Assembly (NCBI GenBank): GCA_963823665.1
Contig: CAWGMQ010000006.1
Location: forward strand, 480,001 to 544,000
Length of the DNA stretch: 64,000 nt
From: an uncultured Planctomycetota bacterium
Lineage (GTDB): Bacteria > Planctomycetota > Planctomycetia > Isosphaerales > Isosphaeraceae
Direction: 5' to 3'
Every line of letters begins with the position of its first letter. Positions within the stretch are counted from its first letter, which is position 1. Of this stretch, positions 1 to 23,540 are shown in pieces. Both the position numbers and the translations under genes were made by a program. The notes beneath the pieces are model-generated. The model worked only from the letters and a program-made list of their open reading frames with translations. It had not been told where the DNA came from and ran no database searches.

Positions 1-3000
1 ACGCTCACGATCAGGGGCGTGGAAGGTGACCCCAGGGTCCCGGTGCCCGCTTTCAGCACGGTGTTGCCGGGCGTCGTGATCTGAGTGCCCGTGCCGCTGC
101 CGAGGATGCTGCCCTGGGCGGTGATGTTCACCGCGCCCCCGGCGGTCACCGTGTTCAGGGTCAGGTCTGGGGTCGTACCCTGAACGGTGATCGACCCCGT
201 GGCGGTCGCGTTCAAGTCGCCGGTGGACGAGATAAAGACCTGCGAGTCCGGCGAGACCTCGACGTCGCCCCCGGACGTGACGACCACATCGCCCGGCGCC
301 GTCGCGTTCGCGATCGCACTTTCCTGGTTCGTCGTGAGGGTCCAGGACTGAACGTCCGCCATCGAGATGTCCACCGCCGCGCTGGTCTGGCCGATGCTTC
401 CGCCCGTCACCAGCGTCACGTTCGCCCCGGAGATGTTCGGCGTCCAGATCCCGACCGGGGTGCCATCCGCGGGGTCCACCGCCACCTCGGCGACCGGGTT
501 CATCAGCTCGGCGTTGGTCCAGGTCGCGTTGCTTTCGAGGTTGGACACCTGCTGTGATGTCGCGACGTAGCTGAAAGTTAGGTCGTCCGCCTGAAATTCG
601 GGCTCGGACATCCAGTTCGAGTCGAGGTTCTGGTTGAAGAAGCTGACGTAGTCCTGGTACTGCGAGTTGGCGTACCCTTGCACCTGTGCTGTCGTGGGGT
701 TGGTGATGTCCAGCGCGAGGGCCGCCTGCCCACTGTAGAGCGCCACGGCCGGGGCGTTCAGGGTGAAGACACCGTCCAGGACGGTGCCGTTGTCGAGCAA
801 TTGCCAGTACGCCACGTAATCGGCGTTGACCTCGTTCTGGAAGGCGGTGATCGCCTGCTGCTCGCTGGCGGCCGGGGCCGTCAGGCCCAGGCTCGTCCAG
901 ACTTGCTGGCTCTGGGGGCTGTCGACTTGATCGGTCCAGGTCGTGCCGCTGGCGTTCACGATCGACCCGGAGGGCACGTCGATGGTGACGTCGCCGGTCG
1001 TCGAGACGATCTGGCCGACCTGAAGGCTCGTGCCGGCCTGGGTCAGGTCGATGTCCTGGAGCGCGGCGACATTGACGACGCCTTGCGCCTGGATCACGAG
1101 CGGCGCGGCCGCCGTGCCGACCGCGCCCTCCGTGGAAGTGAGCGCGATGTTGTTCCCGGTGACGTTGACGGTCCCGCTCGGCAAACCGGGCGCCACGGTG
1201 AGACTACCGGTCGCGCTCAGGACGACGTCGCCGTAACCCGTCGAGCGGTTGCCGGCACTTACTTCGCCGAGCAGTGCCCCGGAGCCCAGGTTGACGTACA
1301 CGCCCTCGCTGCCGGCCTGGGCGTTCAGCACCCCGTTCGCCGTCAGGTTGGCGTCGATCGGCTCCGTCGCGGTGCCGACGCCGCCGCCGGTCGCGGTGAG
1401 CGTGAGGTTGTTGGTTGTGATGGTGGCGGACGGTTCCTGGGTGATGCTGGGGGCGGTGATCGTCGTGTCGCCCAAGGGATTGGCGATGTTCCCCGCCAGG
1501 ATCACCGGCGTGTCCGAGGTGATGCTGACCGTGGCCTGGGACGAGCCGGAGAAATCGATGCCGATGGGGTTGTCCGCCTTGACCGACTCGGTCAGGGTGA
1601 GCTCCGCCTCCGTGGCGAAATAGTATGCCCAGGGGTCCTCCACGAGATCGTTGTCGGATGAATCGTCCACTGGCGGGTCGGTCGGAGCGAAGCCGTAATC
1701 CCCATTGTGGTAGATGTAGTCTGCCATGTACCAATTCAGCACGTTGCCGCTGATTGTTTCCTCGAATGCGGGGAGCCCGGCATCGACGACCGTCCAGCCG
1801 GCGGGTTGGCTGCTCGCGTCGGATATGTCACCGTTCGGCGAAGTCAGGTAATACCACGGGTCGTTCTCGGGGTTTCCTGACACCGCCGTATAAGCCCACG
1901 GACTCGCCGAGAAGGGCGCCTCGCCGGTTCCGCTGTTCTGCGTGATCGTCCGGGTGAGGTCCGTCTGCAACTGCCACTCCCAGCGCAGTCCCGCTTCGGG
2001 GGAGTAGGACGTCGAGCTCCCCTGGATCACGGCCACGGGCGAGCCCTGTTCCAACTGCTGCTGGGTCTGGCCGGCCGTGCCCTGGTACTCGTCGATGACG
2101 CTGCCCGGCTGGTAGACGAACAACGTCTGTTCGGTGGCCGCGGGCTGGTTCGTATCGATGATATCGACCCCACTCAGCGAGGTCGAAGTCGTCGATTTGC
2201 TGGCGGACACGTCGTTCACCACGATGGGGTAATTCGTCGTGTTGTCGATCGTCACCTGGCCCAAGTCGGAGTTGACGTTGAGCTCCCCGAACGTGTTCGT
2301 GCTCATGATCGCGCCGTCGAGCGAGATGAAGCCGCCGGATGAGGCGCTCACGTCGTTCACGATAATCTGCCCGGTGATCGCGTCGTACTCGGCGGTGATC
2401 TGCGTGTCGCCCGGCGAAACCGTGGACGCGGGCAGGGTGTAGTATCCCCGGGCGTCACCCGGCGTTGTCGAGTAGGTTCCGTTGTTGTAGTCCAACTGGT
2501 CCTGGGCGATGGTGCTGTTGAGCGAGGCCGGCAGGCTGAGCGAATCGTTGCTGGGCTGCCCGACATTGATCGGCTCGTTGACGTCGACGTACAAGGCGTT
2601 GATGAAGACCGCGGCGGCGTCGATCGCGCTGGCGCTACCCAGTGTGAGGCCCTCCGTTCCGGTGACAGTCGCCGGCGCCGAAAGCGTGACGTTGGAGAGG
2701 GTGATGGGCTCGTCAGCGTTTCCCGGAGCGTCGCTCGCAACGGGCGCCGAGATTTGAACGTCATAAATATTGCCGTCCTGGAAGGCGATTGACTGGACCG
2801 TCGTCCCTGTCGAGATAAAGTCACCGGTGACGGTAGAACCGATGACCGGCGCTGGCCCGTTGGAGATCACCAGGACCACAGCCGCTCCTGGATCCAGTTC
2901 GAGCGTAAAGGTGGCGTTGCTTACCGCGATCGTCGTCCCCGGCGCGATGCCGGTGCCGGTGATTTCCTCTCCGGTGAACATACCCGTCACACCGTCAGGC

Positions 3001-6000
3001 ACCGTGACCGAAGTCGATCCGCTGGTCAGCGAGCCGGTGAAGGTTGGTTGGTAGGCCGCAGTCGTGACGGGCAGCGGCTCAACGGGGACCACGGGGACCT
3101 CGCCCCTGCCGGAAATGTCGCCGAACTGGTAGGCGCCATCGACCGGACTGTCCTGCGCCGCTTCCTGCGGGGTGATCACGGTGCTATCCCCCGTGTTGGC
3201 ACCCAGGAATTCTACACTGGTGCCGGCTTGGGGCGCCCCATTCACGATGTCCGGCGCGGCGGGTTCGTCATTATAAAGGCCTTCGCCCGGGTCGTATGCA
3301 AAGCTCAAGGGCGGCGTCTGGCCGACCGTGCCGATCAAGTCCTCGGTGAAGCCATCGTCACCGGTGCCGCTCCCTCGGGCGGATATGCTGAAAGGGCCGC
3401 TCCCGATATCCGAGGGGTCGCTGCCATACTGGCCGTCCGCATTGAACATGGAGTTTGCCACAAAGGCCACGTAGACGCTCGCCAGGTCCGAGGGCATGAC
3501 GGCGTCGGTGTAGGGGTCGTAAAAGTCCGGCCAGTACATGGCGGTGTCCCAGTCCGTAGCCGGCGTCCCGGCGTTGCCCGAAAGCCCGGTCGGGTTGCTG
3601 ATCGCGGTGACGCCCTTCTCGGTGGTGAAGTTCACCTGACTGGCGCTGACGCCGCCCGCCTGGATCAATGACCCGTCCAGGACGGTGATCGCCACCTGAC
3701 CCCCCTCGTTGTCTACGCTGCCGCTGGGGTCGAGCGTGACATTGCCCAGGTTGTCCATCGTGGCGGTCGCGAACACGGACGGCCCTGGCTCAGTCGAGTC
3801 CGAAGAAGCAGGAACCGGATTGCCGTACAGTTCCTGGATGTTCACGACGGGGTGCGCGTTCGAGCCCGACTGAGTGATTTGCATCGATGACGGAGCGCCC
3901 ACCGCCAGTCCGGTGTAGACGACCTGGCCGCCGGGCTCGTCCGGGATGTTGATCGAGTCGAGGACGAGGTAATCGGGGCTGTTGTTGGTGACGGTGATCG
4001 TGGGCCCTCCGTAGGCGGTGATGGAACCATCGCCCTGGAACGCGCCGGCGCTCACTGTCACGTCGCCGCCCGCGGCGAACAGCGTGCCGAGCACCATGGC
4101 CCCGACCGGCCCGTCGTGAACCGCGTCCTCGTCCGCCATGGCCTCGCCCGAGTCGGGAAACTCTCCATCGGCCGCGGCGGCCACGATGGTGTTGTAGGGG
4201 TTGAAGCTCGGATCGAAACTGGCCGTGAAGGCGGCGGTGTCAGCGGGGCTCACGAGGTTCGCCGCGGGCGCGGTGCTGACCGAGGTGAGCGTACTGCCGT
4301 TCACGGTGACATCGTTGCTGTAAAAGCCGCCCGGTGCGCTCTGATTATCGGGTATCGTGATGTTGAGCGTGTGGAGGTAGCCGGCCGTGATGGACCCGTC
4401 CATCGTCACGCTCGAGCCCGTCGAGACACTGGGCTTGCTGCTGCCGTCCGTTACCGGGATGAAGCCCAGTTCGTAACCGTGGCCAATCCCGATCGCCGTC
4501 GCGCTGGGCGTGCCGTGGTCCGCCGCGAGCGTGGTGTTCTCTCCGCTCTCGATCTGGTCGCCCGCACCGACGGTCAGCGTCGCATTGCTGGTCAGGTCCG
4601 TGGTCGCCGAGGCCGCTGGGATGGCGACAAAGCTGCGGGCGTACGACTGAGCATTGGAGTTGCCCACCATGGGCTCGGCGGCCAGATCGCCGGGTGTGGG
4701 GTCGTCGCCGGCGGTGAGGTTGATGTTCTGTGCGGCCGTCAGGTTCGTGTCGGGGCCCAGCGCAACGGTCTGGTTCGACGTCACGCCGGTGAGAGCCGAG
4801 GAAGAGGCCACCGCACCGAGCACGCCCCAGGTGTGGGCCTCGCTGGTGCTCGCGGCGTCTACGCTCGAAAACGTGCCGATCCCGATGTTCTGATTGGTCG
4901 CGAAGACGTCGGGGCCCGAGGTCGTCGAGTCGGTCGTCACGTTGTTGTTCAGCGTGGCCGTGAGGGACGAATCGGTCCCGGCCCCCTCGAGCACGCCGCC
5001 CGACCCCAGCGAGACCTGGTCATTCGTGTTGAGCACACTCGAAGCGGTCAGTAAGATGCCGGGTGTGCCGGTGCTTTCGGCGCTGGCGGTCGGCACGTCG
5101 ATCGTGACCGAGCTTTCGATCGTGACGTCGGAGTTGCCGGTGATCGTCGTGGTGCTCAGGGCGGCCGTGCCGTTCAAGAAGCCCCCCGCCCCGGCGGAAA
5201 CCGTGTTCCCACTCGTCGGCAGGTTCTCCGTGAAAGTGTTCTGCGCCGTGATGTCCACCGCGGAAGCGGCGACGATGAGGGTGTTGTTCCCGACCGTCGT
5301 GTCGGCCGCGGTGTTATCGGTGTTATTCGCGAGGGCGCCGCTGGCTCCCGCCAGGGCGGCGTTGGTGGAATCCACCTGAGGCGTGAACACGCTGTTGTTG
5401 ACGGCGCTCGCGTCGACAGTGCCGGCCATAAGGTCCCCGGCGATGGTCGCCGAGACCGTCGAGTCATCGGACGTCTGGCCGACCGCGGCGTCGCCCGCGA
5501 TCACTCCGCCGCTGCCCGCCGTAGTCGAGGCGTCGTTCTCGTCCGTCCCGTTCGCCGAGACGTCGAGCGTGCCCGCGACCATCACGGTCGCGCCGGCCCC
5601 AAGTTGGGCCGAGGTGTTGACGTCGGAGCTGGACACGGCCACGTCGGCGCCGATGCCGAGCAAGCCCCCCACCGCCACGCCGGTGGCGCTCGAGGACTGG
5701 AGGCTCTGGTTGTTCGCCTGGATGGAGACGCCGCCGCCCATCAGGACGACCGAGCTGCCCGTGCAAGCCTCGACCGTGCCGTTGCCCGTCGCCTGGCTCA
5801 CGGTGGCGTCGACGCCCGCGAGAATGCCGCCGGCGCCTGCGGTCGCCGTCGACTTGGCGGTCGGGTCGTTGTTCGAGTCCGGGGACCGCTCGGCGGAAAC
5901 CTGGATCGAGGAGGCCGAGATCGTGTCCCCGTTGCCGAGCGTGCTCGACGTTGTGCCGGACGAGCTCGCGTCGCTGATGACCACACCCACGGCCAAGCCC

Positions 6001-9000
6001 CCCGAGACCGCGACCCCCAAGGCCGTGGCGCTTGCGCTCGGTGTATCCTGGGCCGTAACCTGGACGGCTTCCGTCGCCAGGATCGAGGTGCCAGCGCCGA
6101 CGGCTGCCGTCACACTCGGCGCGACTACGGCATCGGCGTAGACGCCCGTCGCGCCACGTCGATCCCGGCCGCGACACCGTAGGCTTCCGCCGTCGCCGAA
6201 TCGGTTGCGGTGGCCCATACGTCCACGGTGCCGACGGGTGTGGTCTGGCCTATCTGAGCGTCCGAGCCGATCGTGGCCGACGGACCGCCGGTGGCGTTCG
6301 CAATCGCCACGCCCACGCCGGCCGCGTAGGCGAGCGAAAGATTTCCGCCCACGGCCTCTGCCGTCAGCGAGCGGTTCGACGAGGCCGTGACCTGCAACTG
6401 CTGGGCGCTGGCAATCGTCACCCCGTTGCCCAGGCTCGCGGTCTCGGTGCTCGAGTCCTGGATATCGACGACCTGGGCGCCCACGGCGGCGGCTTCTCCG
6501 GCCGTACCCGCGAAGGCCGTGCCCTTCGAGGTGTCGTTTGCAAGCACGGCATTGACCGTGACGTTACCGCCGGCACTTACTGTCGAGGCGGCGTCGATAT
6601 AGGCCTGGGTACTCCCTTGAATGTTGGCGATCTCGACCGACGCTCCCAAGCCGACGCTGCCCACCGACAGACCGCCGGTCACGGCGACGTAATTGACTTC
6701 GCTTTGTGCCTGCACGTTGACGTTGCCCCCCGCGGTTACAGTGGCGGGCGAGACGCCGGTCGAACTTGCGCCGCTCGGAATACCGATAAACGCCACCGTG
6801 CCCTGCGGCGGAGTTGTTGTGCTCGAGAGTGCGCTCGCAACCGGATCGGTGGTCACAGCGCCATTCAAGCCGCTCTGGGCCGAGCCCATCGTGGAGCTGA
6901 TGTATTGCGTGTTGCCGGCACCTCCGTTGAGATCCGGGTTGGTCATTTCGGAGAGCATCGACGTCGCGCCGCCGGTCTGGCCTTCCGCGTTCGAGCTGTC
7001 GGTGGTCACTCCACTGTTGTTGCCCAGGCTGGCCACGGTCTTGGTTTTTGCGGTCGTGCCGGTTCCGTCGGTGTACGCGTAGTCTGGGCTATACGCCTCG
7101 CCGATCGACCAGACCGACACCGCGCCGATCAAGGCGAGCGAAGCCCCCGCGGCGGCACCGATCACGTACGTTTTCACGGCGTCGTTCGATAACGCGTAGA
7201 CGTCGACGTCTTGTTGTGCGTTCACGTTCGCCCCCGCGGCGATGTAGGCGACCGTCGAGTTATTGAGCAGACCGACGTCGACACCACCGGCAATGCCGGC
7301 ACCGCCCAACGCCAGACCCCCCGCAAACGAGAAGTTGGTGGCCTGGTTGACCGCCGCAACGTCCACAGCCTGCGCCGCACTGACTCCCAGACTACCGCCG
7401 ATCGCGCTATCAACGCTTTGCACCGTTCCCGTATTGACGCTGGCATCCGTGCCGATATATGCCTGCGTGGTCGAATTGAACAGCTCGACTGTGACGCCGC
7501 CGCCCAGGGCATCGTCGCCTCCGGCCGCGCCGGCCGCGGCAACGTTCGTCACGTTCTCACTGGTAGAGGCCTGCACGGCCACGCCATGGAATGTGGCGAG
7601 GGTCTCGAAGCGCCTGAAGCGGTGTAGTTTCCATCGAAGATTCCCGAGATGCTCGGGGTGTCGCCCAGCGCGTTGACCGTAGCATTCTCGCCAATAAACG
7701 CACTCGTGTTCTTGATCAGATCGACAATGCTGACCGCGGCGCCGATCGCATCACCTATGCTCAAAGCCACGCTTCCGGTGATCATGTAGGTCACCGTGTC
7801 GTCGGTGGAGTCAACCAGCACGTTCCCGCCGGCGTTCACCTGCGCACCAGTCGCTTCTGACGTGGCGGTCGAGCCGATATTGGCCTGGGTCGTGTCGTTG
7901 ACCTGGACAAACGCGATCGAGCCGGCCAGGACGGTCTCGCCGATGGCAGCCCCGGCGGCGATCGTGAGGATGTCGCCGCTGGAATGAGCCAAGACTTCGA
8001 CGTTGCCCAGCGCGGCGACTGATGCGCCGTCGTCAATCGACGCCTCAGTCGTGTTGTTGATCACCAGCACGACGGCACCCGGCGTGAGGCCGGAAGCAGC
8101 GAACGCCGCTGCGAAGGCGACGCCCAGAAACGCTGCGTCGTTGCCGGCGGCGACCAGCACCGCCTGTGTGCTCGCTGCGCCCGCATTGCTCGAGTTGATC
8201 TTCGCACCCGAAGCGATGTAGGCGGTTGTGTCATTGGTCAATACCGCGACCGAGCCACTCACGTTGAGCGTCTCACCGCCCACTGCCGCGTCGACGCCGA
8301 CTCCCTGGATGTTGTCGCTATTCACGGCCGTGACGGCCAGGCCGTGAACCGACGTCGTCTCGGGCGTCGCAACTCGCTGGTCGATCAACCGCTCGCTGGT
8401 AAGGCTGTTGCCAGAGCCCGTCAGGTTCGCACTCACCGAGGGAGGGGCCGGCGCTGCTGCCGAACTGCCGTAGGGCACATAGGTGACGGAGAACTGGCCT
8501 GTGTCAGCAGAGATGGCCGTCCCGAGCCCCAGCGCGGTAACCGTCGCGCCTGACCCGACGTACGCCTCGGTCGTCTTGCTGACGACAGGCACGGTCACGC
8601 CGGCGCCTAAGGCCGCCAGGCCAACGGCCAGGCTCCCCGACAGCAAGTTAATCGTGTTCGCCTCCGACGCCGCGACCAGGATGCTGCCGTCCGCCGTGAC
8701 GGTGGCGCCGGCGCCGATATAGGCCTCGGTCGTAAGGTTCATCACGAAGACCCCGGCTGCCCCGGCAAGCGCCAGGCTGGCGAACCCCTCTTCGAGGTTC
8801 GGGTTGATGGCGACGACCGCCGTTCCATTGATCGAGGCGACATTCTCTGTCGATTTGGCCTGAACCAGCACAGTGCCGGCAGCAGTGACGGTGCCCGCGA
8901 TATAGGCCTGGGTGGTCTTGCTGATCGAGTCGACGTTGGCTGCGATGCCCACGCCGACATCAGTACCAACGGCCAGGGCGCCGGCCGTGCTGAAGAGAAC

Positions 9001-12000
9001 GAGCGGGTCGGCCGCCGTGACCGTCACCCCCGGTCCGCTGCCAGGCGTGCCGTCGCTCTCATCGAGGTTTGCCCCGCTTGCAACATCGGCCAGAGTCGTG
9101 TCGGAGATGACATTGACTGCTGCCGAGCCGGACACAGCAGCCGAAGTGTCCGAAGTGGCGACCGAGCCTCCGACAGCGACGGCCTGCACGTTCTGAAACG
9201 TCGCCGCGATGACCGCCACGCCAGTGACTGGCGTCGTGTCCCCGGGGTTGCTGTCGGTGTCGCCCGTGAGGACCCGAATCGTGCCCGTGGTCCCGTTGGC
9301 CGTGATCTGATCATTCGCCCCGATGTATGCATCCGTCTTGACGGTATCGACGACCGTCGAGACTGCGGCGCCCGCGGCAACCTCGCCGCTTAAGCTGAGC
9401 TGGCCCGCGACGGTGCTTATTGTCGCCTGGCGGCTCGCCTGAACCAGCAAGTCTCCCTGGGTGTCGACCGTCACGCCGGTCGCGATGTACGCGGTCGTCG
9501 TCGGCTCGTTCGCCGGCGGCGAGATCACCTCGATCGACGCGGCGCCGGCGATCGCCGCCGAAGCGCCGAGCGAGCCCGCCGCCGTGATCGACTGAAAATT
9601 CCCGTTTGTGCTGGCGGTGACCTCGACATTCTGGGCCGCGTCAACCGTCGCGTTCGAGTCAATGTAGGCCTGGTCGCTCTCGGTGACGATGTTGACGTCG
9701 AGCGCAGCGCCGACGCCGACGTCGTTGCCTCCGCCGATCGCGCCGGCCCAGTCCCGGATCGTCATCGACTCGGTCGCCGAGACGGTCACACCTTCGTCGG
9801 CATTGGCCGTTGGGTAACCGGCCGTGCCGACCAGCGTATTGATCGATGCTCCACTGCCGATATACGCAAGTGTTGTCTGTGTAATCACGTTGACGTCGAA
9901 CGAGCCGGCGATCCCGACGCCGCCCGATGTGCCCGCGCCCACGGCGAAGTCCGTCGGGTGGGGCGCGGACGCCGGAAGCGACGTGAGGGCCAGGGCCAGA
10001 GCGTCTAAGGGATTAGTGGGGATGGACTCGATGAGGGTCACCGGCTCCGTGGTCGACAATGTTTTCGTCGGGTTAAAAAGCTCGATTCGGCCGGCGGCCA
10101 GTCCTGCGGCTCCGTTGGCAATTGCGGGCAACGACAACGTCAGCACAGTGGCGTTCGCCGTGGTGCAAATGTGCGTGATCGTCGTATCAGGCAGGATGCC
10201 GGGGCCGCTGAGCGTGTCCCCAACCTTCGGCGTCTTTAACGGATCAAGAAACGTCGTGTCGTCTGATGCGACCACGTTCGACCCGAACGTCAGGACGCCG
10301 GTGAAAGGTATGCTATCGACTTCGGTGATCGCCGTCCCGGTTGGAATACCGGTGCCGGAGACGAGGTCTGACGTACCGACGGTGGCGGCCGGAGGAGGCG
10401 TCGTCGTGTTGATAACCGTGCTGTTGATGCCATTGACGTCATAGTACGTCACGCCGGCGACTTGCTCTGCGGTCAGTGAGGCGCCGGTGGCGGTGATCGT
10501 ATCGGCCGGCGAATTGGGTACGGGGTCCTGAGACGGGATGAGCGACGACTCGGCGGTGACCTGCGTCGTGTCGGCCACATTCGCATTGACGCCCGAATCG
10601 AGGAATGCGTTGGTCGTGTTGTTCAGGACGTTGACATTGACGGCTGCGCCTGCGCCTACTTCGCCGCCGGTGGCCACGGTGAAGGCGATGTTCTGAAGGG
10701 TCTCGTCGTTGGCGGCTTGGTCGCTCAAGCCGCCAAACGAGTTGACAATCGAGCCCGTGCCGATCGACGCCGTGGTCGTGAACGTGATGACGTTGATCCC
10801 GACCGAGCCCGCGACGCCAACCTGCGTTCCGATCGCGATACCCAGCCCCTGCGTCGAGAAATCATTCACCGCGCCGCTCACCATGAGCGCGGTGACGCTC
10901 ACGCCGTCCGCGGAGATCGTGTCCGAGGAACCGATCGTGGCCGTGTTGGTCACGTTCACGACGTTGAGCGAGACAGCGGCGCCGATCGAAGCCTGGTTCA
11001 CGGTCGCCCGCCCGTCGGCCAGGGCGAGGGCGCTCGTTTGGTTGGTGGTGCCGACCGCTAGCTCGCCGCCGGCCGTCACGCTGAGATTGTTACCGATCTC
11101 TGCGACCGCGCTGGTCGAGAGGTCGTTGACGGCTACGGCCGCCGCGATGCCCACTTTGGTCTGGCCGCTACTGCCGCCCGATTTGCTGGTGGCCGAGCTC
11201 GAGGGCGAGGTCATTTCGCTGTTGGAAGAAGGGGGAGCGGTCATATCCGAGCCGCCCTCTTTATCCGCGAATTCGGCCTGGTTATTAGACTCCTGGTCCG
11301 CAGTCCCGCCGCTGCCTGAGCTCGAGCCTTGGCCGGAGCTGGGGCTCGAGGCAGGAGCCCCGCTCTCGCTCGCGATAGCGGCGGCCTGGCTGGACGCGGT
11401 CACAGGGTCGGCCGTGACGCTGACGGCCCCGCCGGCAACGACGTTGCGGTCGAGCTCAGCCTGAAACGTGTCTGTCGCCACGTTGACGACCACCGATGCC
11501 CCGACCCCGACGCTCCCGGTCGGATCGGCCGCGGCGGCAGCCACCGAGTTCACCGTGAACGACCCGCTCGCTCCGATCGTGAGATCGCCCGAGGCATTGA
11601 GCGTCTCTGTGTCCGAGCTGACGGTGGCCATCGTCTGACCGCTGGCGATCACGATGGCGATGCCGCCGCCGAGCGCCACCTGGCCCGCCCCCCCGTTTTG
11701 GGCCCAGGTGAGGATCGTCTGGGACGAGCCGGCGGTGACCGTGACGTTACCGGCGTTCGTGAGCGCGGCTCCGTCCTGGACCTCGGAGTCGGTGGTGTTG
11801 TTGATGATGTTCAGGGCGAGCGACGCGCCGAGGCCGAGGCTGCCGCCCGTGGCGGGTGACCCGGGTATCGCGAACGTCAAATCGGTCGAGTTGTTCAGGG
11901 AGGTCACCGAGACATCGCCGCCGTTGGCGTCGACCGAGGCGCCGGGCGCGATCAGGGCCTGGCTGGTGTTCGTGACGATGTTGATCGCCACCGCTCCGGC

Positions 12001-14904
12001 CACGCCGATGTCGCCGGCCCCCGCGCCCGAAGTCGCGTTGGCGCCGAACTGGTTCATTGGAGCGGAGCCCGCCATTCCCGCGTTGACAGTCACGCCGTCG
12101 GTGTTGATCGTCGAATTCTGACCGATGGTTGCAAGGGCAGAGGCGCTCACGAGGTTCAAGGCGACCGCCGCCCCGATTCCCACCTTGGCGGTTCCCGCGT
12201 CGGTGCCCCAGGCGTTCGCCGAGTCGCCGATCACCGGGTTGGCGGGGTAGATCGGGTTGGTGGGGTCGCCGGTGTCGTTGTTGGCGCTGACGTTCAAGGG
12301 GCCGTTCTTGTCCGTCATGGTCAGGCCGGCGGGGATCGTCGCGTCGGCCGCGCTCGAGACGATGTTGACGGCCACTGCGGCAGCCACCGTGACCGACCCG
12401 TCCGATGTGCTGGCGGCCGGTGTGTCGGCGTCGCTCTTGGTGTCGCCGGCGCTCTTGGTGTTTCCCTTCGAATCGGTGATCGTGCTCTCGTTGTCGGCGA
12501 AGTCGCGCGCCTGGGCATTCTGGCCGTCAACGGAATTCGGGTCGGCCGTATCGGAGCCGCTCGCCGCCTCGCTTTTGTCTGCCGGCCCCGAATCTGGCTC
12601 CTGCGACTCCTGGGTTTTGGTCGGCCCGCCGGTCGCGCTGGCGTTCGACGAGACCAGGCTGGCGGCAGAGCCGTCGGCCTCGAACGTTATGCCGTCCGCA
12701 CCTGAGGCATTGATGGAGCGGTTGGTCGTCGCCGTCGTCTGGTCGGTGGCGAACGCCAGGGCGATCGACACGCCCGCCGAGGCCGCGTCCCCCTGCCCTG
12801 CCGCGGCTCCGACCGCGGTCGAAGTCTGAGCCGTGTGGGTTGCGGTTGCCGAGAATGAGCCGCCGACGGTGAGCGGGTCGTTTGCCGCGTCCGGAGCCCC
12901 CACCTGTGCCGCGGTCAAATTGTTCACCACCGAGATGCCCACCGACGGGCTGATCGACAACGCTCCCCCCGCCGAGCCGGAGACCGCGTTCGTGCTGACG
13001 ACGTCGGTCGAGCCCGCGGTGAATGTCAGGTCTTTCGCACCGGACAATTGCGCAGTGTTCTGGAGATCGGCCAGCGTGGTGTTGCTCGCGATGGTTAGCG
13101 CGACGGCTGCACCGACACCAACGGCGCCGCCCCCCGTGCCCCCGGCGAACCCGGGCGGCGGCTGCGCGATCGTGGTCTCGGTGGCGCTGTCCTGCGCGTT
13201 GAACGTGTCATCGCCGGCCATGGAAACGGTCGAGCCCGACGGGACGCATGCCTCGCTGGTGTTGGAGACGACGATCAGGGCCAGTGCGCCGGCGAGTCCG
13301 ACACTCGTGCCCAATGTACCCGCGGTCGCCGACGCCGAGGTGGTGAGCACGTTCGGCGTCGGGGAGGGCGCGCCGGGTGTCGCCGTCTGCACGCTGATCG
13401 TCGGGGCTGAAAGTTTGGACGCGCCGGTCGTGCTCTCGACTGTGGCGGTGTCGCTCGATACCGTGTCACTGATCGCGACGGCGACCCCGACGCCGACATT
13501 GGCGTTACTTGTGGCCGAGTTGCCGTCGGCCGTTGTCGCCGTGTTGTTGTTGGACGACGCGTCGATATTGATGGCATTGGTGGCCGTGACCGTGGATGAA
13601 TCGACATAGGCCTGGGTCGTTGGCGTGAACTTCGTGACCGCCACGGCGCCGGCGACGCCCAGCGGGAGGCCGGCCGAGAAGGCCGTGTCGGCCGGGGAAG
13701 ATTTGTCCGCGGGGTTGGGGTTGGACGGAGTTGCCGACGCGAGATAGCCGGGGTCGACTTTCCCCGCGAGGATGTTTTGGATCGCGCTGTTCGGGCCGGC
13801 GCCTGTGGAGCTCGAGTTGGCAGTGGTATTGGCCGTATTGGTTGTCGTGGCCAAAACGTCGACCGTGCCGCCCGATGCGGTGGAACCACCGGCCACGAAG
13901 GCTTCGCTCGTGCTGTTGTCGAGTGTCAGAGCGGCCGTCGCGCCCATGAGGGCGGCGGAGCCGTCGACCTCCGTCGTTACATTGGTCGTGTTGGTCGACG
14001 TGATGCTCAGCGTGCCGGCGCCGCTGCCGGCCTTTACCGTCGAGCCGCCGCCGACCTGGGCGATTGCCGAGGAATTGACAACCGATTCGGCGATCGCCGC
14101 ATCAATCGGCTCTAGCGCACTTCCCGCGATGCTTGTACCAACCGTGGCGCCGGTGTTGACGGTGGCGCTTGAGTCTGCCCCGATCGTGACGTTACCGCTG
14201 GCCTTGTTGACTGCGATCTTGGTCGAAGACCCTGTGACCGTGACCGCCGCGCTCGGGTCGAGGTTGGCGATTGCCGCGGCCACCCCGATCGCATTCAGAG
14301 CTCCCAGGGAGGCGTACGTGTACGAGGCCGAAGCACTGGCGTCCAGCGTGATGTTGTCTGCCTCGATCGTCGCTCCCGTGACACTGATCGCGGCCTGCGG
14401 GGTGCCGCTCGCCAGCAGAGTCGTCTCGGAGGCCTCGACGTCGACGTTGCCTTGCGTCGCGTTGATCGTGACGTCCGAGAAGTTCACCGAGGTGACGCCG
14501 GAGACGTTCAGGGCGTCGGTGCCCGACGCAGTGTCAAGGGTGATCGTGCCGCCGCTGCCGCCAAATGTCACGCTCTGGTTGGGGTCGTCCTGGCTGGGCG
14601 TGTTGGCTCCCAGTACCAGAAGTGAGGTGACGCCCGAGAATGCTTGCGCGGAGAAGCCGGTGCCGCTGACCGAAATGGTCGACCCGGAAGGCGTGATCAA
14701 AGCCTGGTCATTGGCCGCGGAGAGGTTGACATCAAGCACGCCGGAATTCAAGGATGCGGTCACACTCAGAAGTGTGCGTTTTTCAAGTTCCTGGATCACC
14801 AGAGAAGGCGACTTACGCCGCGGGCGTTTGGCTCGAAGGTTGGAGGGAGTCTCTACGAAATTCGCCGACCTTGACCCCAGAGGCCAGTTCCACTTGCGAG
14901 CCAT
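1..14904 (-). CDS. Giant secreted repeat protein or filamentous adhesin-like protein (>4,900 aa, 3' end beyond the window edge); two apparent frameshifts near 7612 and 6152
   Basis: ATG at 14904 is preceded by AAGGAG. A basic N-terminus leads into LEKRTLLS (planctomycete extracellular/LEPR-XLL-like motif), followed by Ala/Gly/Val/Thr/Ser-rich repeats (GAAVA.N..NTT.AYI). ORFs 7549..14904 and 6125..7582 join by single-base shifts. The minus-strand frame below ~6150 reads as the same type of protein at every point I translated (e.g. ESVKADNPIGIDFSG, TQITTPGNTVLKAG) down to base 1. Confidence 0.85.
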
Positions 14905-15074: not shown

Positions 15075-15107
15075 CTTTAGCCGGCGGGGGGAAAATGCCA
15101 CCGCCAA
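15075..15107 (-). promoter_or_regulatory. Candidate ECF-type promoter, copy 1: TTGGCG-N18-CGGCTAAAG
   Basis: Both half-sites and the 18-nt spacing are identical to the copy at 15219..15251; it points towards the left giant gene. Confidence 0.6.
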
Positions 15108-15218
15108 AGTGAAGGGCTTTGGGGCGAGTCTGCGGTTCACGGCTGTGGCGGCCGCATGCAGCTTGATGCGGTTGCAAGGATTCGACGCGGGGCGTGAGCC
15201 GCGCGCCAGTCGCTATCT

Positions 15219-15251
15219 CTTTAGCCGAGAGCCGTCGCAGAACTTCGCCAA
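15219..15251 (-). promoter_or_regulatory. Candidate ECF-type promoter, copy 2: TTGGCG-N18-CGGCTAAAG, preceded by an A7 tract
   Basis: Same half-sites and spacing as 15075..15107 but an unrelated spacer sequence; the copies are 144 bp apart. Confidence 0.6.
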
Positions 15252-15380
15252 CTTTTTTTCGGAAATCGACGTGATTGTGACTCTGACTGCGGGCGTGTTA
15301 TCGCTTGCGGACCCGCGTTGCCACTACTAGAATCTAGAATCGTTCGAGAGCGTTATGCCACTATTCTCTCTCTCCGGGGA

Positions 15381-15946
15381 ATGATGTCCCTTTCGGGCGA
15401 TTCAAGAGTGTCCGCGGTGCTCCAGGCGGCCCAAGCCGGGGACCGACAGGCGGTGACTGACCTCTTACCGCTCGTCTATGCCGAGTTGCACGAGCTGGCG
15501 CGGCGCGACTGGCACGCCAGCGGCCGGGCCACACGCTGACGCCGACGGCGCTCGTCAATGAGGTGTACCTGCGGATTGCCGACGACACTAATGTGACGTG
15601 GGAAGGCCGGCAGCACTTCCTGTTCGCTGCCGCGCGCGCCATGCGCGACATCCTGGTTGAACAGGCGCGCCGGAAGGCGGGGCCGAACCGGGGCGGCGGC
15701 CAGCGGCGCCGGGAGCTGGACGAGGCGTGCGCTATTCTTGAGCCCCCCTCGGACGACGTGCTGGCGGTGCACGAAGCACTGGAGGAACTCGAAACGCGCG
15801 ACCCGCTCAAGGCACAGATCGTCCTCCTGCGCTATTTCACCGGGTTGACCAGGGATGAGACCGCGGCGGTTCTCGGGCTGGCCGAGCGCACGCTCGACCG
15901 GCATTGGCGGTACATCCGGGCCTGGCTCAAGCAGCGGCTGAGCTAG
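15381..15946 (+). CDS. ECF RNA polymerase sigma factor (TIGR02999/ECF43-like, kinase-associated); frameshift near 15503
   Basis: Joined translation: AAQAGDRQAVTDLLPLVYAELHELA...RPGHTLTPTALVNEVYLR...HFLFAAARAMRDILVEQARRK...LRYFTGLTRDETAAVLGLAERTLDRHWRYIRAWL, i.e. sigma2 plus a sigma4 HTH. It lies directly upstream of a kinase. Confidence 0.9.
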
Positions 15947-15970: not shown

Positions 15971-18900
15971 ATGCCTGAGCCATCGCCCGAAGCCGTGGAG
16001 GCGCTGTTCCAGCAGGCGACCGACATCGACCCTGAGGGGCGCGGCAAGTTCCTGGACGAACAGTGTGCCGGGGATCCTGACCTGCGTACGGCTGTCGAGG
16101 AACTGCTCCGCTTCGACTCCGAGGCCGAGAGCGAGCCTGACTTCTTGCAGACCCCGGCTGCGGGCTTACCCGCCGTGCAGCCCCTCGCCGCGGACCCCGG
16201 GCTGCCGGCTTACATTGGCCGCTATCGCATCCTCCGCCGGCACGGCGAAGGCGGTATGGGCACCGTGTACGAGGCCGAACAGGACAACCCGCGCCGCACC
16301 GTTGCCCTCAAGGTGATACGCCCCGATCTCGTTTCAGCCGAGTTCCTCATTCGCTTCAAACAAGAAGCGCAAATCCTGGGCCGGCTTCAGCATACTGGGA
16401 TCGCGCAGGTCTACGAAGCGGGGCGGGGGGAAGACCGCCAGCCGTTTTTCGCCATGGAGTTCATTCGCGGGACGCCGCTGGACGAATACGCCCGCGGACG
16501 CGGTCTCCTCGCGCAGCGCGCCTGGAGCTGCTGGCGCGGGTATGCGACGCGGTGCAACACGCTCACGACAAGGGAGTTATCCACCGTGACCTCAAGCCTG
16601 GCAACATCCTGGTCGATGAATCGGGCCAGCCCAAAGTGCTCGACTTTGGCGTTGCCCACATCACCGACGCCAACTTGCTGACGACGTCCCGCCAAACGCA
16701 GACCGGTCAATTACTCGGCACCTTGAACTACATGAGTCCAGAACAGCTCGCCGCACGCCCGACAGGGCTCGATGTACGCTCCGATGTGTACGCGCTAGGA
16801 GTGATTCTTTTCGAGCTCCTGGCACACCGGCTACCGTACCATCTCGATCAACTTCCGGTGCACGAGGTTGCACGGGTGATCGCACAACAAGAACCGGCCC
16901 CTCTGGGCTCGATCGACAGGCATTACCGCGGCGACGTCGCGATCATCGTGTCCAAGGCGCTCGCGAAAGACAAGAGGCAGCGGTACACGTCCGCGGGTGA
17001 CCTCGCGTCGGACATCCGGCGCTACCTAGGCGGGGAACCGATCCTGGCCCGGAAGGTCAGTCCTGCGGAACGATGCTGGCGATGGGCCCGCCGCAACCCG
17101 TTCATCGCCGCACTCGGAGGCATTCTCACCGGCGTGCTGGTGCTCGCCACGGTCGCGTCGCTTCTGGCTGTGCGCCGGTTCGCCAGTCTGGCCGAGCTTG
17201 CAGGAGACTCGGCCAAGCGCGAGCGGGCGGCACGCCTGGATGCCGACGTGGCGCGCCAGGCGGCTGAGGCAGCGGGCGCGGCGGCGCAGGCCGAGACTTA
17301 CCGCGCCGTGCTCAGCGAGGTCAAAGCGCTCAGGGCCGGACATCAGCTCGGATGGCGCGAGGAAGCTCTCGAGGATCTCTCGCGACTTGTGCGCATGCCT
17401 ACGCCACGCCGGGATATCGTCGAGCTGCGCACTGAGGCCGTGGCCACGATCGGCGAGTTCGGCGTGAAAGAGGTGGCCCGACTCCAAGTGTCCGGAGAGA
17501 TCGTCTACGGCATCGATTTCAGCCCCGACTCCCGGACCCTCGTGACGGGCTCCGCAAACGGGGACCTCGATTACTGGGACGTCCCAGCCCGGAAACATTT
17601 GCGGCGGCTTGTGGGCGTGGCAAGAACGGTCACGGGCGCAGTGGCTGAATTGAACGGCGGACAGGTGCGGTTTCTGCCCGACGGCGATCTGGCGATTGTC
17701 ACCCCCGGCCCGCGCGTCGCGTTCCTGGGCGCTTCCGGCCGGGGATCGACCCGGCGGCGGTCGATTGAGCGTGCGAATTCCAAGGTCGCGAAGCTGGCGA
17801 TCGATCGCCAGGGTCGTTGGCTGGCGCTCGGCTTTGAAGATGGGCGCATCGACGTCGTCGATGCAGGCACAGGTGCTCTGCGACGAAGTATCGCAGGGAA
17901 TCCGGGGACGTTCGCGTTCAGCCCGGACGGGCAGTGGCTCGCAGTGCAGGCTCAGTATGGGCCGGTCCGGCTTCTTCCAATGACAGGGGGAAGTCCCCCG
18001 TTCATTCTGGGACACCTTGGCGGTTACTACCCGGCGTTTGCCTTTAGCCCGGACGGCACGACGATGGCCACCGTTGCGGACCGTGCACTGGTGCTCTGGG
18101 ACTTGAGCTCCAAAGAAGAATTGATGAGGCTCGGTGGACACAAGGAGTCGATCACCGCGGTTGCGTTCAGCCCTGACGGGGCGCTTGTCGCGACCACTTG
18201 CGGCGACCATGTGACGCGGATCTGGGACGCTCGAGACGGCCGGGCGCTGGCCGTCATTCCCGGGCCATGGTTCATGCGTGCGCTCGCGTTCAGCCCCGAC
18301 CGCGGCTATCTGGCTGTCTCAGCGCTCCCGGGCCCTGTGTGCCTCTACCAGCTCAACGGGTGGCGAGAGCAACGACGCCTGGTCGGCCACAAATTCGGCG
18401 CCCAGTGTCTGGCATTCCATCCTCGCTTGTCTCGGTTCGCCTCCGGGGCCGACGATTGTGCCATCGTCGTCTGGGACGCGGACGAGGCCCGTGCCTTGCG
18501 GCGATGGCAGCCGTACAGAATCTGGGTCACGGGGCTGGCGTTTAGCCCCGACGGCTCGCTGCTGGCGAGCGCGGTCGGAGATTCAGACGGGTATGCCTTT
18601 GCGAATGACCACTCGATTCATCTTTGGGACGCCGAAGATGGTACGCTCCGAAAGCGTTTACCGCGCCCGCCTCATCTCGGCGTTCGCGCGCTGACATTCG
18701 ATCCGACGGGCCGTCGACTGGCCTCGGGGGACGATGGCGGGACGGTCCTCTTGTGGGACGTGGAAAGTGGCAAGATTCTGCGTCGCGAGAACCTGGCGCG
18801 CACGCCAGTCAGGTCGGCCGTCTTTGTCAACGGTGGTCGCCATCTCATCGTTGGCCACGTTGGAGGGACGGTCGCGAGTATTGACCTGGGCGGCACTGGA

Positions 18901-19947
18901 GGGACCCGGCGTGTCGAGCTGCCCCAAGGCTGTGGCTGTCTCGTGGTCGACGATCACAGCATGCGCGTCCTCGCCGGCGGATCGCAGGGGGAATTGTCGG
19001 CGCTGGCACTACCCGATCTGACCGTCGTCCACCAATTCGCCAATGCCCATGATGGAGAGATCCTGTCCGTTGGGTTGAGCCCGGATGGGCGACTGCTGGC
19101 CACGAGTGGTCGAGATAGGCGAGTCGTCCTACGAGACGCAGGGACGTTTGCGCCGTGGTTCACATTCCCGACCTGGACTGGCCTGGTCAAGGATCTGGCC
19201 TTCGATGCGTCGGGCCGCTGGCTTGCATTCGCCGGAGCCGATTCTGACCTCGCACTCTGGGACCTGCACGCGCTGCATCAGGGACTCGATGCCGCGGGTC
19301 TCGCCTGGGACCAGCCGTCGCCCGCCATCGTCCCTGCATCGGGGTTCACAACGGAGGACGAGCGGCTTCGGCCCAGCGTGCCGGTCATCGGGCCCGAGAA
19401 GACGGACGCGGCGGCATTCGAGCAGGCTCGCCGGCTCGTCCAATCGGGCGTCGGCGCCGCCGAGAGCGGCCGGTTGGCCGCGGCGATCCGCGATCTCGAG
19501 CAGGCGCGAGACCGGCTACGGACCTTGCACCAGGCCATTCCCAGCGACGGTCAAGTGGCCAGCGAGCTGGCCCTCGACCTGGGCGTTCTCGGCAGCACTC
19601 TGAGCCGCGAGCATCGTAATACGGACGCACTCGAGGCCATGCAGGAGGCTCGCCAGGTCCTGGACGCCATTGTCCAGCCCACCTTCGCGGATCTGTACAA
19701 CCTCGCGCGTGTCTGCGCCAGTCTCACGACCCTGGTTGAGACAGGACGAGGGAGGCCGACCTTCGCCGAGCGTGAGGCCTTGGCGCGTGAAGGGGTGGAA
19801 GCGCTCAGGCGATCCCTGGCGGCCGGCATGTCCTATTTCGGCCCAATGGATCGCGACCAATGGCTCGATCCGTTGCGTAATCGACCTGATTTCCGCGCCT
19901 TGATGCTTGACAGAGGCTTCCCCCGCGACCCGTTCGCTCACCCGTGA
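15971..19947 (+). CDS. Ser/Thr protein kinase with a TM helix, WD40 repeats and a C-terminal TPR-like helical region; frameshift near 16512
   Basis: GEGGMGTVY, VALKVI, IHRDLKPGNIL, DFG, YMSPEQ, SDVYALG; hydrophobic FIAALGGILTGVLVLATVASLLAV; many FSPDG/LWD repeats; C-terminal DQWLDPLRNRPDF. The frameshift is resolved by comparison with the adjacent paralog (ARLELLA). Confidence 0.9.
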
Positions 19948-20003: not shown

Positions 20004-23000
20004 ATGACGCGAGACGACGAACGCCCGCCAGTGAATGACCTCTTCGCTCCGAGAGCCGATCCAACCGCCGAGCGCGTGGAGGCGCTGTTTCAGCAGGCGG
20101 CCGAGCTGGATCCAGCGCAACGTGGGGCATTCCTGGAGCAGCAGTGCGCAGGCGACGGCGAGCTACACGCCGCTGTGGAGGATCTTCTCCGATTCGACGC
20201 GGAGGTCGAAAGCGACCCTGACTTCTTGCCCAGCCCGGTGGCCCCCGCCCGCGCCACATTTCCGATTGCAGCGGAGCCCGGGCTGCCGGCTTTCATCGGC
20301 CGCTACCGCATCTTGAGGCGACACGGCGAAGGTGGCATGGGGACCGTTTACGAGGCCGAACAGGACCACCCGCGCCGCACCGTTGCTCTCAAGGTGATTC
20401 GCGCGGGAGGCGCAACAGCCGAGCTGCTCAGCCGCTTCCGACACGAAGCAGAAATCCTGGCGCGGCTGCAGCATCCCGGTATCGCGCAGGTGTACGAAGC
20501 GGGCATCGGTGTGGACGGCCGGCCCTTCTTCGCCATGGAGTTCATTCGCGGTATGACGATGGACGAGCACGCGCGAAATCGCGGACTGGACCCTCGAGCG
20601 CGCCTGGAGCTGCTGGCGAAGGTGTGCGACGCGATGCAGCACGCTCATGACAAGGGTGTCATTCATCGCGACTTGAAGCCGGGCAACATCCTTGTGGATG
20701 ACTCCGGCCAGCCAAAGGTGCTCGACTTCGGCGTGGCCCATATCACCGCGGCCGAACTGTTCTCCACCGCGGGGCGAACCCAGGCCGGTCAACTGCTGGG
20801 CACGCTTACTTACATGAGTCCCGAACAGATCGCCGCCGACCCGGCCGGGCTCGACAGACGTTCGGACGTGTATACTCTCGGCGTCATTCTCTTTGAACTT
20901 TTGGCGCAACGGCTGCCATACCAGCTCGATCAGCTTCCGGGGCACGAGGTCGCGCGGGTAATCCAGGAGCAGGAACCGTCTCGACTGGGCTCGATCAACG
21001 CGCTTTACCGCGGCGACGTCGAGATCATCGTGGCGAAAGCGCTCGAGAAAGCCAAGACGAGGCGCTACGCTTCCGCGGGGGACCTGGCGTCGGACATCAG
21101 GCGCGACTTGCGCGGGGAGGCGATTCAGGCGCGGCCTGCCTCGGCGCTGTATCAAATACGCAAATTCACGCGGCGACACAAAGCGCTGGTGGCCGCGGCG
21201 GCGGGCATTTTCGCGGCGCTCGTCGTGGGAACGGCCGTTTCCATTCTTTTTGCGTTGCGCACCGCAGCGAACGCTCGCGTGGCGGACGAAAACGCTCGCG
21301 TGGCGAAGGAACGGGAGCGAGCCGCCACGTACGAGAGCTACCGTGCCCGGATCGCGGCTGCGGTTGCCGCGATTTCGCGTCACGACGTTGCCGATGCCGC
21401 CAGCCAGTTGGGCGCGGCACCGGAGGCTTTGCGCGACTGGGAATGGCGACACTTGCACGCGCGGCTCGATGACAGCATCGCCATCTTCCCGGCCAGCGCC
21501 GGCGAAGCTCAATTCCTGATCGGCGACCAGAAGGGCATCCGGATCGCTCGGTTAGCGCGTGAGAGTCTGCGCCTGGGCGACCTCGATGGGAAGGAACTCT
21601 GGGAGCGATCCTTTCCATCTGAGGCGAATGTACTCGATCATCCCCCGCTGCTGACGCGGCAGGGACTGCGGCTTTTCGCCGACGGCCGGGAGACTGGTGC
21701 TGCCACGGTCGGTCTGCCGAAGGATGTGCCACAGAACACAGGCATGCTGAACGTCCTTGACGACCTGGGGCGTGTCCAAACGCAACTGAGGGGGCCCGGA
21801 GTAACGCACACCGAACTGATGGCGGTGAGTGCGGACGGTTCGCGGCTGGCGGTTGTGTGGCAAGGCCCGAAGCAGTGGATATTCACGGTGTACGATGCCG
21901 AATCTGGCAAACCAGTGGCGACCTCGGCCCAGGACATCGCCAGCACCTGGGCCCTTGCCTTCAGTCCGGACGGCACGCGCCTCGCGACTGGCGGCGAGGA
22001 TGGCGTGACACGTCTCTGGGATACTTCAACCGGTATGATGACCATCCTCTGTGAAGGGCACACTCGCAAGGTGTTCAGCGTGGCGTTCAGACCGGATGGC
22101 CTGCGCCTTGTGACGAGCTCGGCGGATGGAACCGTACGCCAGTGGGATTCCGCGACCGGCCGGGAGGTACTTGCGCCCTACGATCGTCACACCGGTGAAG
22201 TCCTGACGGCGAAGTTTAGCTCCGATGGGGAGTTGATCGCCTCCGCAGGCACGGACCGGACTGTCCGGGTATGGCGCGCGTCGAACCGCCAGGACCAGGG
22301 TGTTCTGCAGGGCCACATCGGTGACATCAGCGATCTGGCATTTGTTGGGGACGGCCATCGGCTGGCTTCAGTGAGCTACGCGCCCCGTCGCGGCAGCGTG
22401 GCGCACCATGACGGCACGGTGCGGCTGTGGGAGGTCGGGAGTCAAGGAGCGGCGTCGGTGCTGCGCGGCCACAAGCTCTACGTCTATCCGGTCGCGTACA
22501 GCCCGGACGGACAATGGATTGCTTCGGGCGATTGGGACAACAAGGTGTTTTTGTGGGACGCACTCACCATGGAGCACATCGCGAGCTTGCCTCATTCCGG
22601 GAATATCCGCGCGCTGGCCTTTAGCCCGGACAGCTCGTGGTTGGTTGCCGGAACCGCGATGGACGATTCGCTCTCCATCTGGGACGTAACGACCGCCCGG
22701 CGCCGGAACAAGCTCAAGGGCCCCGGCGGCGACGTGGTTCAGGCAATCGCGGTGAGCCCGGATGGAGCCCACATCGCCGCTGCTGATTCCGTTGGAGCCG
22801 TCAGCATCATGGAAGCCGCGACGGGCGCGGTTGTCGATTCCTTTCGAATGGTCGGGAGCGCTTCAATCGCGAAGAAGTCGCTAGCCTACAGCCCAAACGG
22901 ACGACTCCTGGCAGGTACCGGTGAAGACGGCACGCAGATTGACATCCGAGACACGCAGACGCGGCGTCGGTCAGGGCGTTTGACGGGTCATACGGACGCG

Positions 23001-23540
23001 ATTAGCTCCGTTTCGTTCAGCGGCGATGGGCTGCTGCTGGCCTCCGCGAGCGCGGATCGCACGGTCCGCATCTGGGAGGTGGCGTCGTCGAAATGCGTCG
23101 CCGTGCTGACCGGGCACACCGACGCGGTCTTCTCGGCGGTGTTCCATCCGGACGGCAAGCGGCTGGCGTCTGCCGGCCGCGACCGGTCGATCTGGCTCTG
23201 GGACCTGGCGAGCGGACAGGAAGTGGCGCGCCTCGAGGGACACGCGAACTACGTCTTCTCACTGGCGTTCAGCCCCGACGGCACGAGCCTGGCATCCGGC
23301 TCCGGCGACGGTACGGTCCGGATATGGGACACCGAGTCGCCGGCGCTGCGATATCAGGCCCGCCGAGAGGCGGAGGCTATGCGGCCCGAGGCGGAGCGGT
23401 TGGTTGCACGCCTCTTCTCCGAGCTGCATGAGCCGGAGCTGGTTGTTGGCCGTTTGCGGGGGGATACCGGGCTGAGCGACCTGATGCGGCACATGGCGAT
23501 GCGGGAGGTCATGCGGCGGGGGCAGGAGGCGGCGCCGTAG
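20004..23540 (+). CDS. Ser/Thr protein kinase with a TM helix and WD40 repeats
   Basis: Complete Hanks motifs (GEGGMG, IHRDLKPGN, DFG, SPE), TM segment ALVAAAAGIFAALVVGTAVSILFAL, and canonical GH...FSPDG...WD repeats. Confidence 0.95.
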   Translation: MTRDDERPPVNDLFAPRADPTAERVEALFQQAAELDPAQRGAFLEQQCAGDGELHAAVEDLLRFDAEVESDPDFLPSPVAPARATFPIAAEPGLPAFIGRYRILRRHGEGGMGTVYEAEQDHPRRTVALKVIRAGGATAELLSRFRHEAEILARLQHPGIAQVYEAGIGVDGRPFFAMEFIRGMTMDEHARNRGLDPRARLELLAKVCDAMQHAHDKGVIHRDLKPGNILVDDSGQPKVLDFGVAHITAAELFSTAGRTQAGQLLGTLTYMSPEQIAADPAGLDRRSDVYTLGVILFELLAQRLPYQLDQLPGHEVARVIQEQEPSRLGSINALYRGDVEIIVAKALEKAKTRRYASAGDLASDIRRDLRGEAIQARPASALYQIRKFTRRHKALVAAAAGIFAALVVGTAVSILFALRTAANARVADENARVAKERERAATYESYRARIAAAVAAISRHDVADAASQLGAAPEALRDWEWRHLHARLDDSIAIFPASAGEAQFLIGDQKGIRIARLARESLRLGDLDGKELWERSFPSEANVLDHPPLLTRQGLRLFADGRETGAATVGLPKDVPQNTGMLNVLDDLGRVQTQLRGPGVTHTELMAVSADGSRLAVVWQGPKQWIFTVYDAESGKPVATSAQDIASTWALAFSPDGTRLATGGEDGVTRLWDTSTGMMTILCEGHTRKVFSVAFRPDGLRLVTSSADGTVRQWDSATGREVLAPYDRHTGEVLTAKFSSDGELIASAGTDRTVRVWRASNRQDQGVLQGHIGDISDLAFVGDGHRLASVSYAPRRGSVAHHDGTVRLWEVGSQGAASVLRGHKLYVYPVAYSPDGQWIASGDWDNKVFLWDALTMEHIASLPHSGNIRALAFSPDSSWLVAGTAMDDSLSIWDVTTARRRNKLKGPGGDVVQAIAVSPDGAHIAAADSVGAVSIMEAATGAVVDSFRMVGSASIAKKSLAYSPNGRLLAGTGEDGTQIDIRDTQTRRRSGRLTGHTDAISSVSFSGDGLLLASASADRTVRIWEVASSKCVAVLTGHTDAVFSAVFHPDGKRLASAGRDRSIWLWDLASGQEVARLEGHANYVFSLAFSPDGTSLASGSGDGTVRIWDTESPALRYQARREAEAMRPEAERLVARLFSELHEPELVVGRLRGDTGLSDLMRHMAMREVMRRGQEAAP

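Follow-up and report, generated by a model that had tools for sequence, protein, structure and literature searches.

A predicted promoter of a kinase-linked, ECF43-like sigma factor facing a divergent giant gene in a planctomycete, and a second copy of its motif

Genes and motif copies of the locus

The DNA analysed here, referred to as the window, is a stretch of 64,000 nucleotides (G000:C6:480001-544000) from the 16.46 Mb genome (G000) of an uncultured planctomycete. In its left part a divergent intergenic region lies between a giant gene on the minus strand and a sigma factor gene followed by kinase genes on the plus strand. The features that matter for what follows are, in window coordinates:

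3-6218 and 6125-7582, minus strand: further ORFs of the giant gene, the former running off the window
7549..14904, minus strand: first ORF (2451 aa) of the giant gene, the putative target, with an N-terminal LE.R.LL motif and NF012206 tandem repeats
15075..15107, minus strand: proximal motif copy, with the same 15 core bases as the distal one and neither A-tract nor spacer T-runs, overlapping a GGCGG/CCGCC hairpin of the predicted leader
15150..15178, minus strand: third, degenerate core-like site (here TTGCA-N18-CGGCC), 73 bp after the distal copy and of uncertain significance
15219..15260, minus strand: distal motif copy, with an A-tract (15253-15259), a -35 box TTGGCG (15246-15251) and an 18-nt spacer ending in TCT
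15223-15227, minus strand: -10 box CGGCT of the distal copy, this copy as a whole being the predicted cognate promoter of the adjacent sigma, with a predicted start at 15214
15305..15333, plus strand: TTGCGG-N17-TAGAAT, a putative promoter-like site of housekeeping type, oriented towards the sigma gene
15381..15946, plus strand: TIGR02999 / Sigma70_ECF sigma gene, frameshifted near 15501, with TPTA in place of DAED
15971..19947, plus strand: Ser/Thr kinase gene with WD40 repeats, Pkinase matches and one hydrophobic segment (crude hydropathy window), frameshifted near 16512
20004-23540, plus strand: second kinase-WD40 gene, following the first

The C-terminal piece of the sigma matches TIGR02999 with 147 bits (cut-off 126.15), and PF07638, found on both pieces, is matched with 142 bits. 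The Thr of TPTA shows no variation among 52 aligned relatives and falls opposite AED when SigL is aligned. As is characteristic of the family, a kinase with one predicted transmembrane helix occupies position +1 with respect to the sigma. Sigma and first kinase are each one base short in comparison with intact orthologs, the indel in the sigma being seen against two of them and a same-genus ortholog being among those compared, and no contig bridging the sigma frameshift was found among the short-read contigs of public runs; an assembly error at both frameshifts is likely, if unproven, because several related loci from other assemblies are frameshifted as well. More kinase genes, at 38657-42822 and 43837-46525, are split into overlapping ORFs, which is consistent with frequent one-base indels in the assembly.

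NF012206 repeats are present in two of the three giant-gene ORFs, and no Pfam match was obtained in the first 100 amino acids of the protein. The N-terminal LE.R.LL motif is taken by us to be that labelled Planc_extracel; the giant repeat protein is probably secreted and is predicted to be a surface protein.

The first-pass annotation had reported, on the minus strand of the intergenic region, two motif copies 144 bp apart having 15 identical bases, an identical 18-nt spacing and differing spacers, and its positions proved exact: the copies lie at 15075-15107 and 15219-15251, and their spacers are unrelated. Both are matched with no differences by short-read contigs from public runs. When the intergenic region was doublet-shuffled 600 times, an exact 6+9 pair of this kind arose once, and the pair exceeds naive chance; when up to three mismatches are allowed, the window contains a single further match, at 45276 (three in total as against 1.64 expected), and genome-wide one more match is found at one mismatch, inside an ORF. 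The accompanying claim that the pair is not a simple duplication likewise holds, for no duplication signal was detected outside the cores (252 of 1000 shuffles scored equally well). An ancient duplication, or a 72-bp triplication of the leader, was also considered and rejected, no non-core similarity being found (at best 34 of 500 shuffles). The distal and the proximal copy are not, on the other hand, equivalent.

The distal copy and the motif of its sigma family

The two closest orthologs retain the distal core at 15/15 and 14/15 bases and the A-tract at 8/8. In the subclade, for which we took the 20 loci with a sigma sharing 65% identity or more with the intact ortholog, the arrangement A-tract-TTGGYR-N18-CGGCT occurs upstream and on the opposite strand at 16 loci and, with CGCCT, at a 17th; as for the three misses, the upstream region is rearranged in one and almost wholly lacking in two. 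The same subclade sites are recovered when sites are called from the core only, without the spacer. The genes that these sites face vary, ten of them beginning with an LE.R.LL-like motif and the others including that of an ATPase-domain protein. When the window was scanned with a subclade profile built from 13 non-orthologous sites, the distal copy ranked first of 127,912 positions with 44.2 bits and the proximal copy 173rd with -22.7 bits, it being understood that this profile is anchored on TCTCGGCT, so that its TCT columns are circular and the proximal copy is over-penalised. With the family profile, in which -10 positions 3-4 are masked, the distal copy again ranked first of about 127,900 positions and the proximal one 257th of 127,910, with 0.0 bits.

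Because 100 of the 123 best sites show a pyrimidine-purine step 12-13 nt beyond the -10 C, the start is placed at 15214, the very position proposed in the first-pass annotation, which fits this family habit. The distal copy also displays what is expected of an ECF-type promoter, namely two boxes at fixed spacing beside a cognate sigma and facing a gene, and on these comparative grounds it is very likely the promoter of the adjacent TIGR02999/ECF43-like sigma. It stands back to back with the housekeeping-type site at 15305..15333; among 25 subclade and sister loci, 12 have a similarly placed TA.(A/G)AT hexamer, preceded in most cases by TTG at a distance of 17 nt, and a scan with the sigma-70 consensus returned no matches, this site included.

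Just past the predicted start, at 15180-15205 on the minus strand, there is a small hairpin-like element with a (T/C)TCACG-type loop that is kept across paralogs having different targets (it is also seen at L036, L228, L116, L117, L118, L226, L229 and L043); a five-way consensus fold favours longer-range pairing instead. The leader of L117 is nearly that of L116 and yet fronts an unrelated short gene; these two leaders suggest that the cassette of sigma, kinase and promoter may be reused with new targets.

At the level of the family, 227 loci were reduced to 211 by the removal of 16 redundant ones, and a motif TG-N21-CGnnT was found at 141 of them (above 95% of the null, -10 positions 3-4 masked); 18 of these sites were set apart as of low confidence, leaving 123. 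De novo expectation maximization (EM) on 49 sigma-kinase spacers of other planctomycete TIGR02999 loci, to which the search was restricted since the kinase coding start otherwise dominates, yielded TG-N21-CGCATT facing the kinase, with a log-likelihood of 437 as against 122-137 for shuffled sequences. The same procedure applied to 128 upstream regions of more distant loci, mostly from Acidobacteria, yielded a divergent-strand motif TG..TTT..TTC-CGC(C/T)T, whose geometry is again one of 23 nt.

Over the 123 sites the residues covarying best with the five -35 bases are 173, 177, 169, 169 and 172 (numbering of the intact ortholog L034, Met = 1), all in the sigma-4 recognition helix. R169 together with D172 is paired with TGGC(G/A) in 12/12 cases belonging to four separate clades, and K or R at position 172 with C in 26/27. 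Residues 172, 173 and 176 presumably correspond to R171, S172 and F175 of RpoE, judging from the SigL alignment and from the RpoE sequence context. As to the -10 region, residue 46 goes with the masked third base: E with C in 94/95 sites, the single exception looking like a one-base misplacement of the site, and Q, L or R with G or T in 27/27. On a tree of 121 of the 123 loci, two short sequences being left out, the changes of residue 46 and of the base number 6 and 7, and 7 jointly; the held-out L121 has E46 and CGCCT inside the CGGCT clade. The residue-46 rule fits only 10 of the 18 low-confidence sites, and for three of the eight that do not fit, the EM run on the spacers points to a better site downstream. 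All G-type -10 boxes fall in one clade, hence the G code has one origin. Residue 46 lies in the loop between regions 2.1 and 2.2 and is, by covariation, the strongest -10 determinant here; the second-ranked position for the third -10 base is residue 89, which aligns with SigL N75. The window sigma carries Q46, D89, R169 and D172, the set that goes with TGGCG / CGG. R169/D172/R173 of sigma-4 would read TTGGCG, and Q46/D89 of sigma-2 would select the G at the third -10 position. An AlphaFold model (pLDDT 77, helical, with a disordered linker) was uninformative on DNA contacts.

In a sister sigma clade (RRHFFGAAARAM; L206, L207, L216, L218, L224, L232) divergent TGAC-N19-C(G/A)GA(T/C) sites are seen, and the three CAGAT cases of clade RRHFFGAAARAM include both sigmas tabulated with Glu at 89.

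The proximal copy and the competing readings

The reading that we consider probable is that the distal copy is a promoter read by the neighbouring ECF43-like sigma, which is predicted to be kinase-activated, driving the divergent giant gene from about 15214, and that the proximal copy is a weak, lineage-specific look-alike. The housekeeping-type promoter at 15305-15333 would give rise to the sigma-kinase operon; on a signal received by the WD40 domain, the kinase would become active and phosphorylate the Thr of TPTA, thereby activating the sigma as in the analogous EcfP and EcfK; transcription by the activated holoenzyme would then begin near 15214 and run through a 310-nt leader and on through the giant gene. 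Were the sigma frameshift real, an intact paralog (G000:C4:438508-439062) could read the distal site.

That both copies work, the proximal one being a young second promoter or a site at which the same sigma re-binds, with a correspondingly shorter leader, is an improbable reading that nonetheless deserves weight. It would imply that the proximal copy was gained in this lineage while the core-like site 73 bp after the distal copy decayed, and the latter site indeed reads TGGCG-N18-CGGCC in two orthologs and is decayed in the window. The window differs from both closest orthologs at -10 positions 1 and 5 of the proximal copy, two bases that are invariant in the motif, both changes being towards the consensus; extra near-perfect downstream cores occur at 4 of 15 subclade loci (3 of them independent) as against 0.3 expected; the T-G step at 15071/15070 suits an initiator; and the 15-base core is exact, present in the short-read contigs and seldom paired in shuffles, although the window was chosen on account of this very match. 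Against the reading stands the comparative record: in a region otherwise 92% and 82% identical, the two closest orthologs have only 12/15 of the core bases and 6/9 of the -10 part, the copy is degenerate in 4/4 orthologous leaders, whose positions score -41 to -87, and it is absent from the homologous leaders L116 and L117. Moreover, besides the A-tract, the proximal copy is missing both the T three bases before the -10 box and the spacer T-run, a combination seen in 0/123 high-confidence sites, for the selection of which the spacer columns had themselves been used. Finally, at 119 other family loci no exact second core was found and one-mismatch second cores numbered 3, as against 0.7-1.4 expected; second copies are not a family trait. 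The consensus-ward changes and the decayed +73 core could reflect site turnover, and we regard the proximal copy as probably a weak or recent, lineage-specific look-alike. The proposal of tandem promoters made in the first-pass annotation is supported for the distal copy by clade-wide conservation, family geometry and residue-base covariation, whereas the proximal copy, with 12/15 bases kept in both closest orthologs and no spacer features, is only weakly supported; the tandem idea, with comparative support for one copy only, is the weak part of that proposal.

A bolder proposition, possible in our view but doubtful, is that kinase-switched ECF43-like sigmas have a -10 code of their own, in which residue 46 reads the base after C-G (Glu for C, Gln for T, or for G if the residue equivalent to N80 is acidic), and that the locus presents a second promoter born by binding-site turnover in the giant-gene leader. 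If true, such a code would allow one to predict, in each planctomycete genome, what dozens of paralogs have as their local targets.

It is very unlikely that an unrelated transcription factor binds the sites or that another sigma of the genome reads them. Candidates abound, G000 having 41 or more TIGR02999 genes alongside many further sigma-like matches, and the local sigma is frameshifted; yet in different phyla, and through repeated changes on the tree, the bases of the site follow the residues of the sigma next to it, and the motif is non-palindromic and always faces a neighbouring gene. Even more remote is the notion that the repeat acts within the RNA of the long leader and not as a promoter, its copies being hairpin arms or an antitermination signal, GGCGGTGG, which we take to resemble ops. 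TTGGC and GCTAA are partly complementary, and the proximal copy overlaps a GGCGG/CCGCC stem that is kept in the five-way consensus and is strong in one ortholog (z -4.06), but its strength in the window is low (z -0.66), no more than 4 of the 50 consensus pairs change on both sides, the covariation term weighs against it and Rfam gave no match of note. The distal copy, for its part, folds worse than 198 of 200 shuffles; this reading could hold for the proximal copy only. Fold z values range from -0.3 to -4.1 over five orthologous leaders, and support for the hairpin overlapping the proximal copy is modest; a DNA search for further orthologous leaders retrieved two real ones and one weak 44-nt match.

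Known systems and the reach of the circuit

The kinase switch itself is an already known kind of system. In common with EcfK-PknS of Xanthomonas citri and EcfP-PknT of Vibrio parahaemolyticus, the locus has a Sigma70_ECF sigma with Thr replacing DAED, a kinase with one membrane segment directly downstream and no anti-sigma gene seen adjacent. These features of the two pairs are described in the accessible parts of PMC13147305, PMC8999054 and PMC7826278, and the activation of EcfP and EcfK by Thr phosphorylation in those of PMC8999054, PMC13147305 and PMC8103513. Unlike these pairs, the present sigma belongs to a planctomycete subclade, the sensor is WD40 and not TPR, and the presumed target is a divergent giant repeat protein. 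The ECF43 group in the accessible part of PMC7826278 comprises Proteobacteria only, a later expansion being mentioned, and the supplement of that paper predicts an ECF43 promoter with GTC (-35) and CAG (-10), from which the motif found here, TG-N21-CGnnT, departs. Within its coverage the literature search gave no ECF43/TIGR02999 promoter beyond the GTC/CAG prediction; Jogler 2012, Wiegand 2020, Iyer 2020, Bayer-Santos 2018 and Todor's datasets lay outside that coverage and may hold the motif. The EcfK/EcfP literature, as far as its text is accessible, gives no experimentally defined promoter. Relative to these partly accessible sources the promoter motif of such sigmas is new, and ECF43-type promoters have probably been left undefined there because the sigmas do not autoregulate.

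With the ECF code of Todor et al. 2020 (PMC7776599) and the SigL structure of Lin et al. 2019 (PMC6372665), both as partly accessible, the motif shares a bipartite promoter and a -10 region starting with C-G, and with the former the covariation of sigma-4 helix positions with -35 bases. Residue 89, aligned with SigL N75, equals RpoE N80 by the offset taken from the accessible text of PMC6372665, and N80 is named a -11 determinant in that of PMC7776599, where residue 46 does not appear among the determinants and, in the main text, neither "ECF43" nor "kinase" occurs. Unlike the ECF promoters treated in the accessible text of that paper, the predicted promoter here is not autoregulatory. For sigmas switched on by phosphorylation, as the ECF43 type is, a motif with a residue-level code offers a bench-testable promoter.

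The canonical TIGR02999 modules of G000 agree in their 23-nt geometry and, in many instances, in the TGGC -35 box, but there the site, which reads CGCATT, is placed in the sigma-kinase spacer and directed at the kinase, whereas here the sigma-kinase gap is 18-24 nt and the site faces the divergent gene and reads CGGCT. In all, 41 TIGR02999 matches in G000 exceed the cut-off, and the family motif with its residue-level code provides a route to assigning targets among these paralogs, of which there are at least 41. A pattern TGRS-N19-CGCATTG has 44 matches in G000 as against 15 for the reversed control, an excess suggesting that canonical TIGR02999 paralogs may have more targets.

Relaxed subclade patterns gave 4 and 3 matches in G000 (controls 0 and 3), the extra three lying in coding regions; a wider regulon was accordingly rejected, only two sigma-adjacent sites standing, the distal one and that of the C4 paralog. 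In 121 family genomes the exact 15-base pattern matched the ortholog and one coding sequence only. The C4 paralog, which is intact, agrees with the window sigma in its specificity residues and has the same TTGGCG/CGGCT site, and because of this the left circuit is probably not insulated from it. Of the two insulated circuits postulated in the first-pass annotation there remains the difference between left and right, the right-hand sigma being of another family with different shared motifs, whereas on the left the code is shared with the C4 paralog. The right-hand sigma is TIGR02984-like, below the cut-off of that profile.

A shared TGTCCC-N14-GCGCAGT stands, at approximately 43645-43675 (minus strand) and 47212-47238 (plus strand), immediately before the TIGR02984-like sigma gene and the right giant gene, and is a candidate promoter of the right-hand module. 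Three (A)TTCCG-N15-TTCGTG sites lie on the plus strand upstream of the right giant gene, at about 46543, 47141 and 47188, and two GGGACA-N15-GAGCAT copies, at about 43670 and 43806 on the plus strand and 136 bp apart, precede the kinase gene at 43837.
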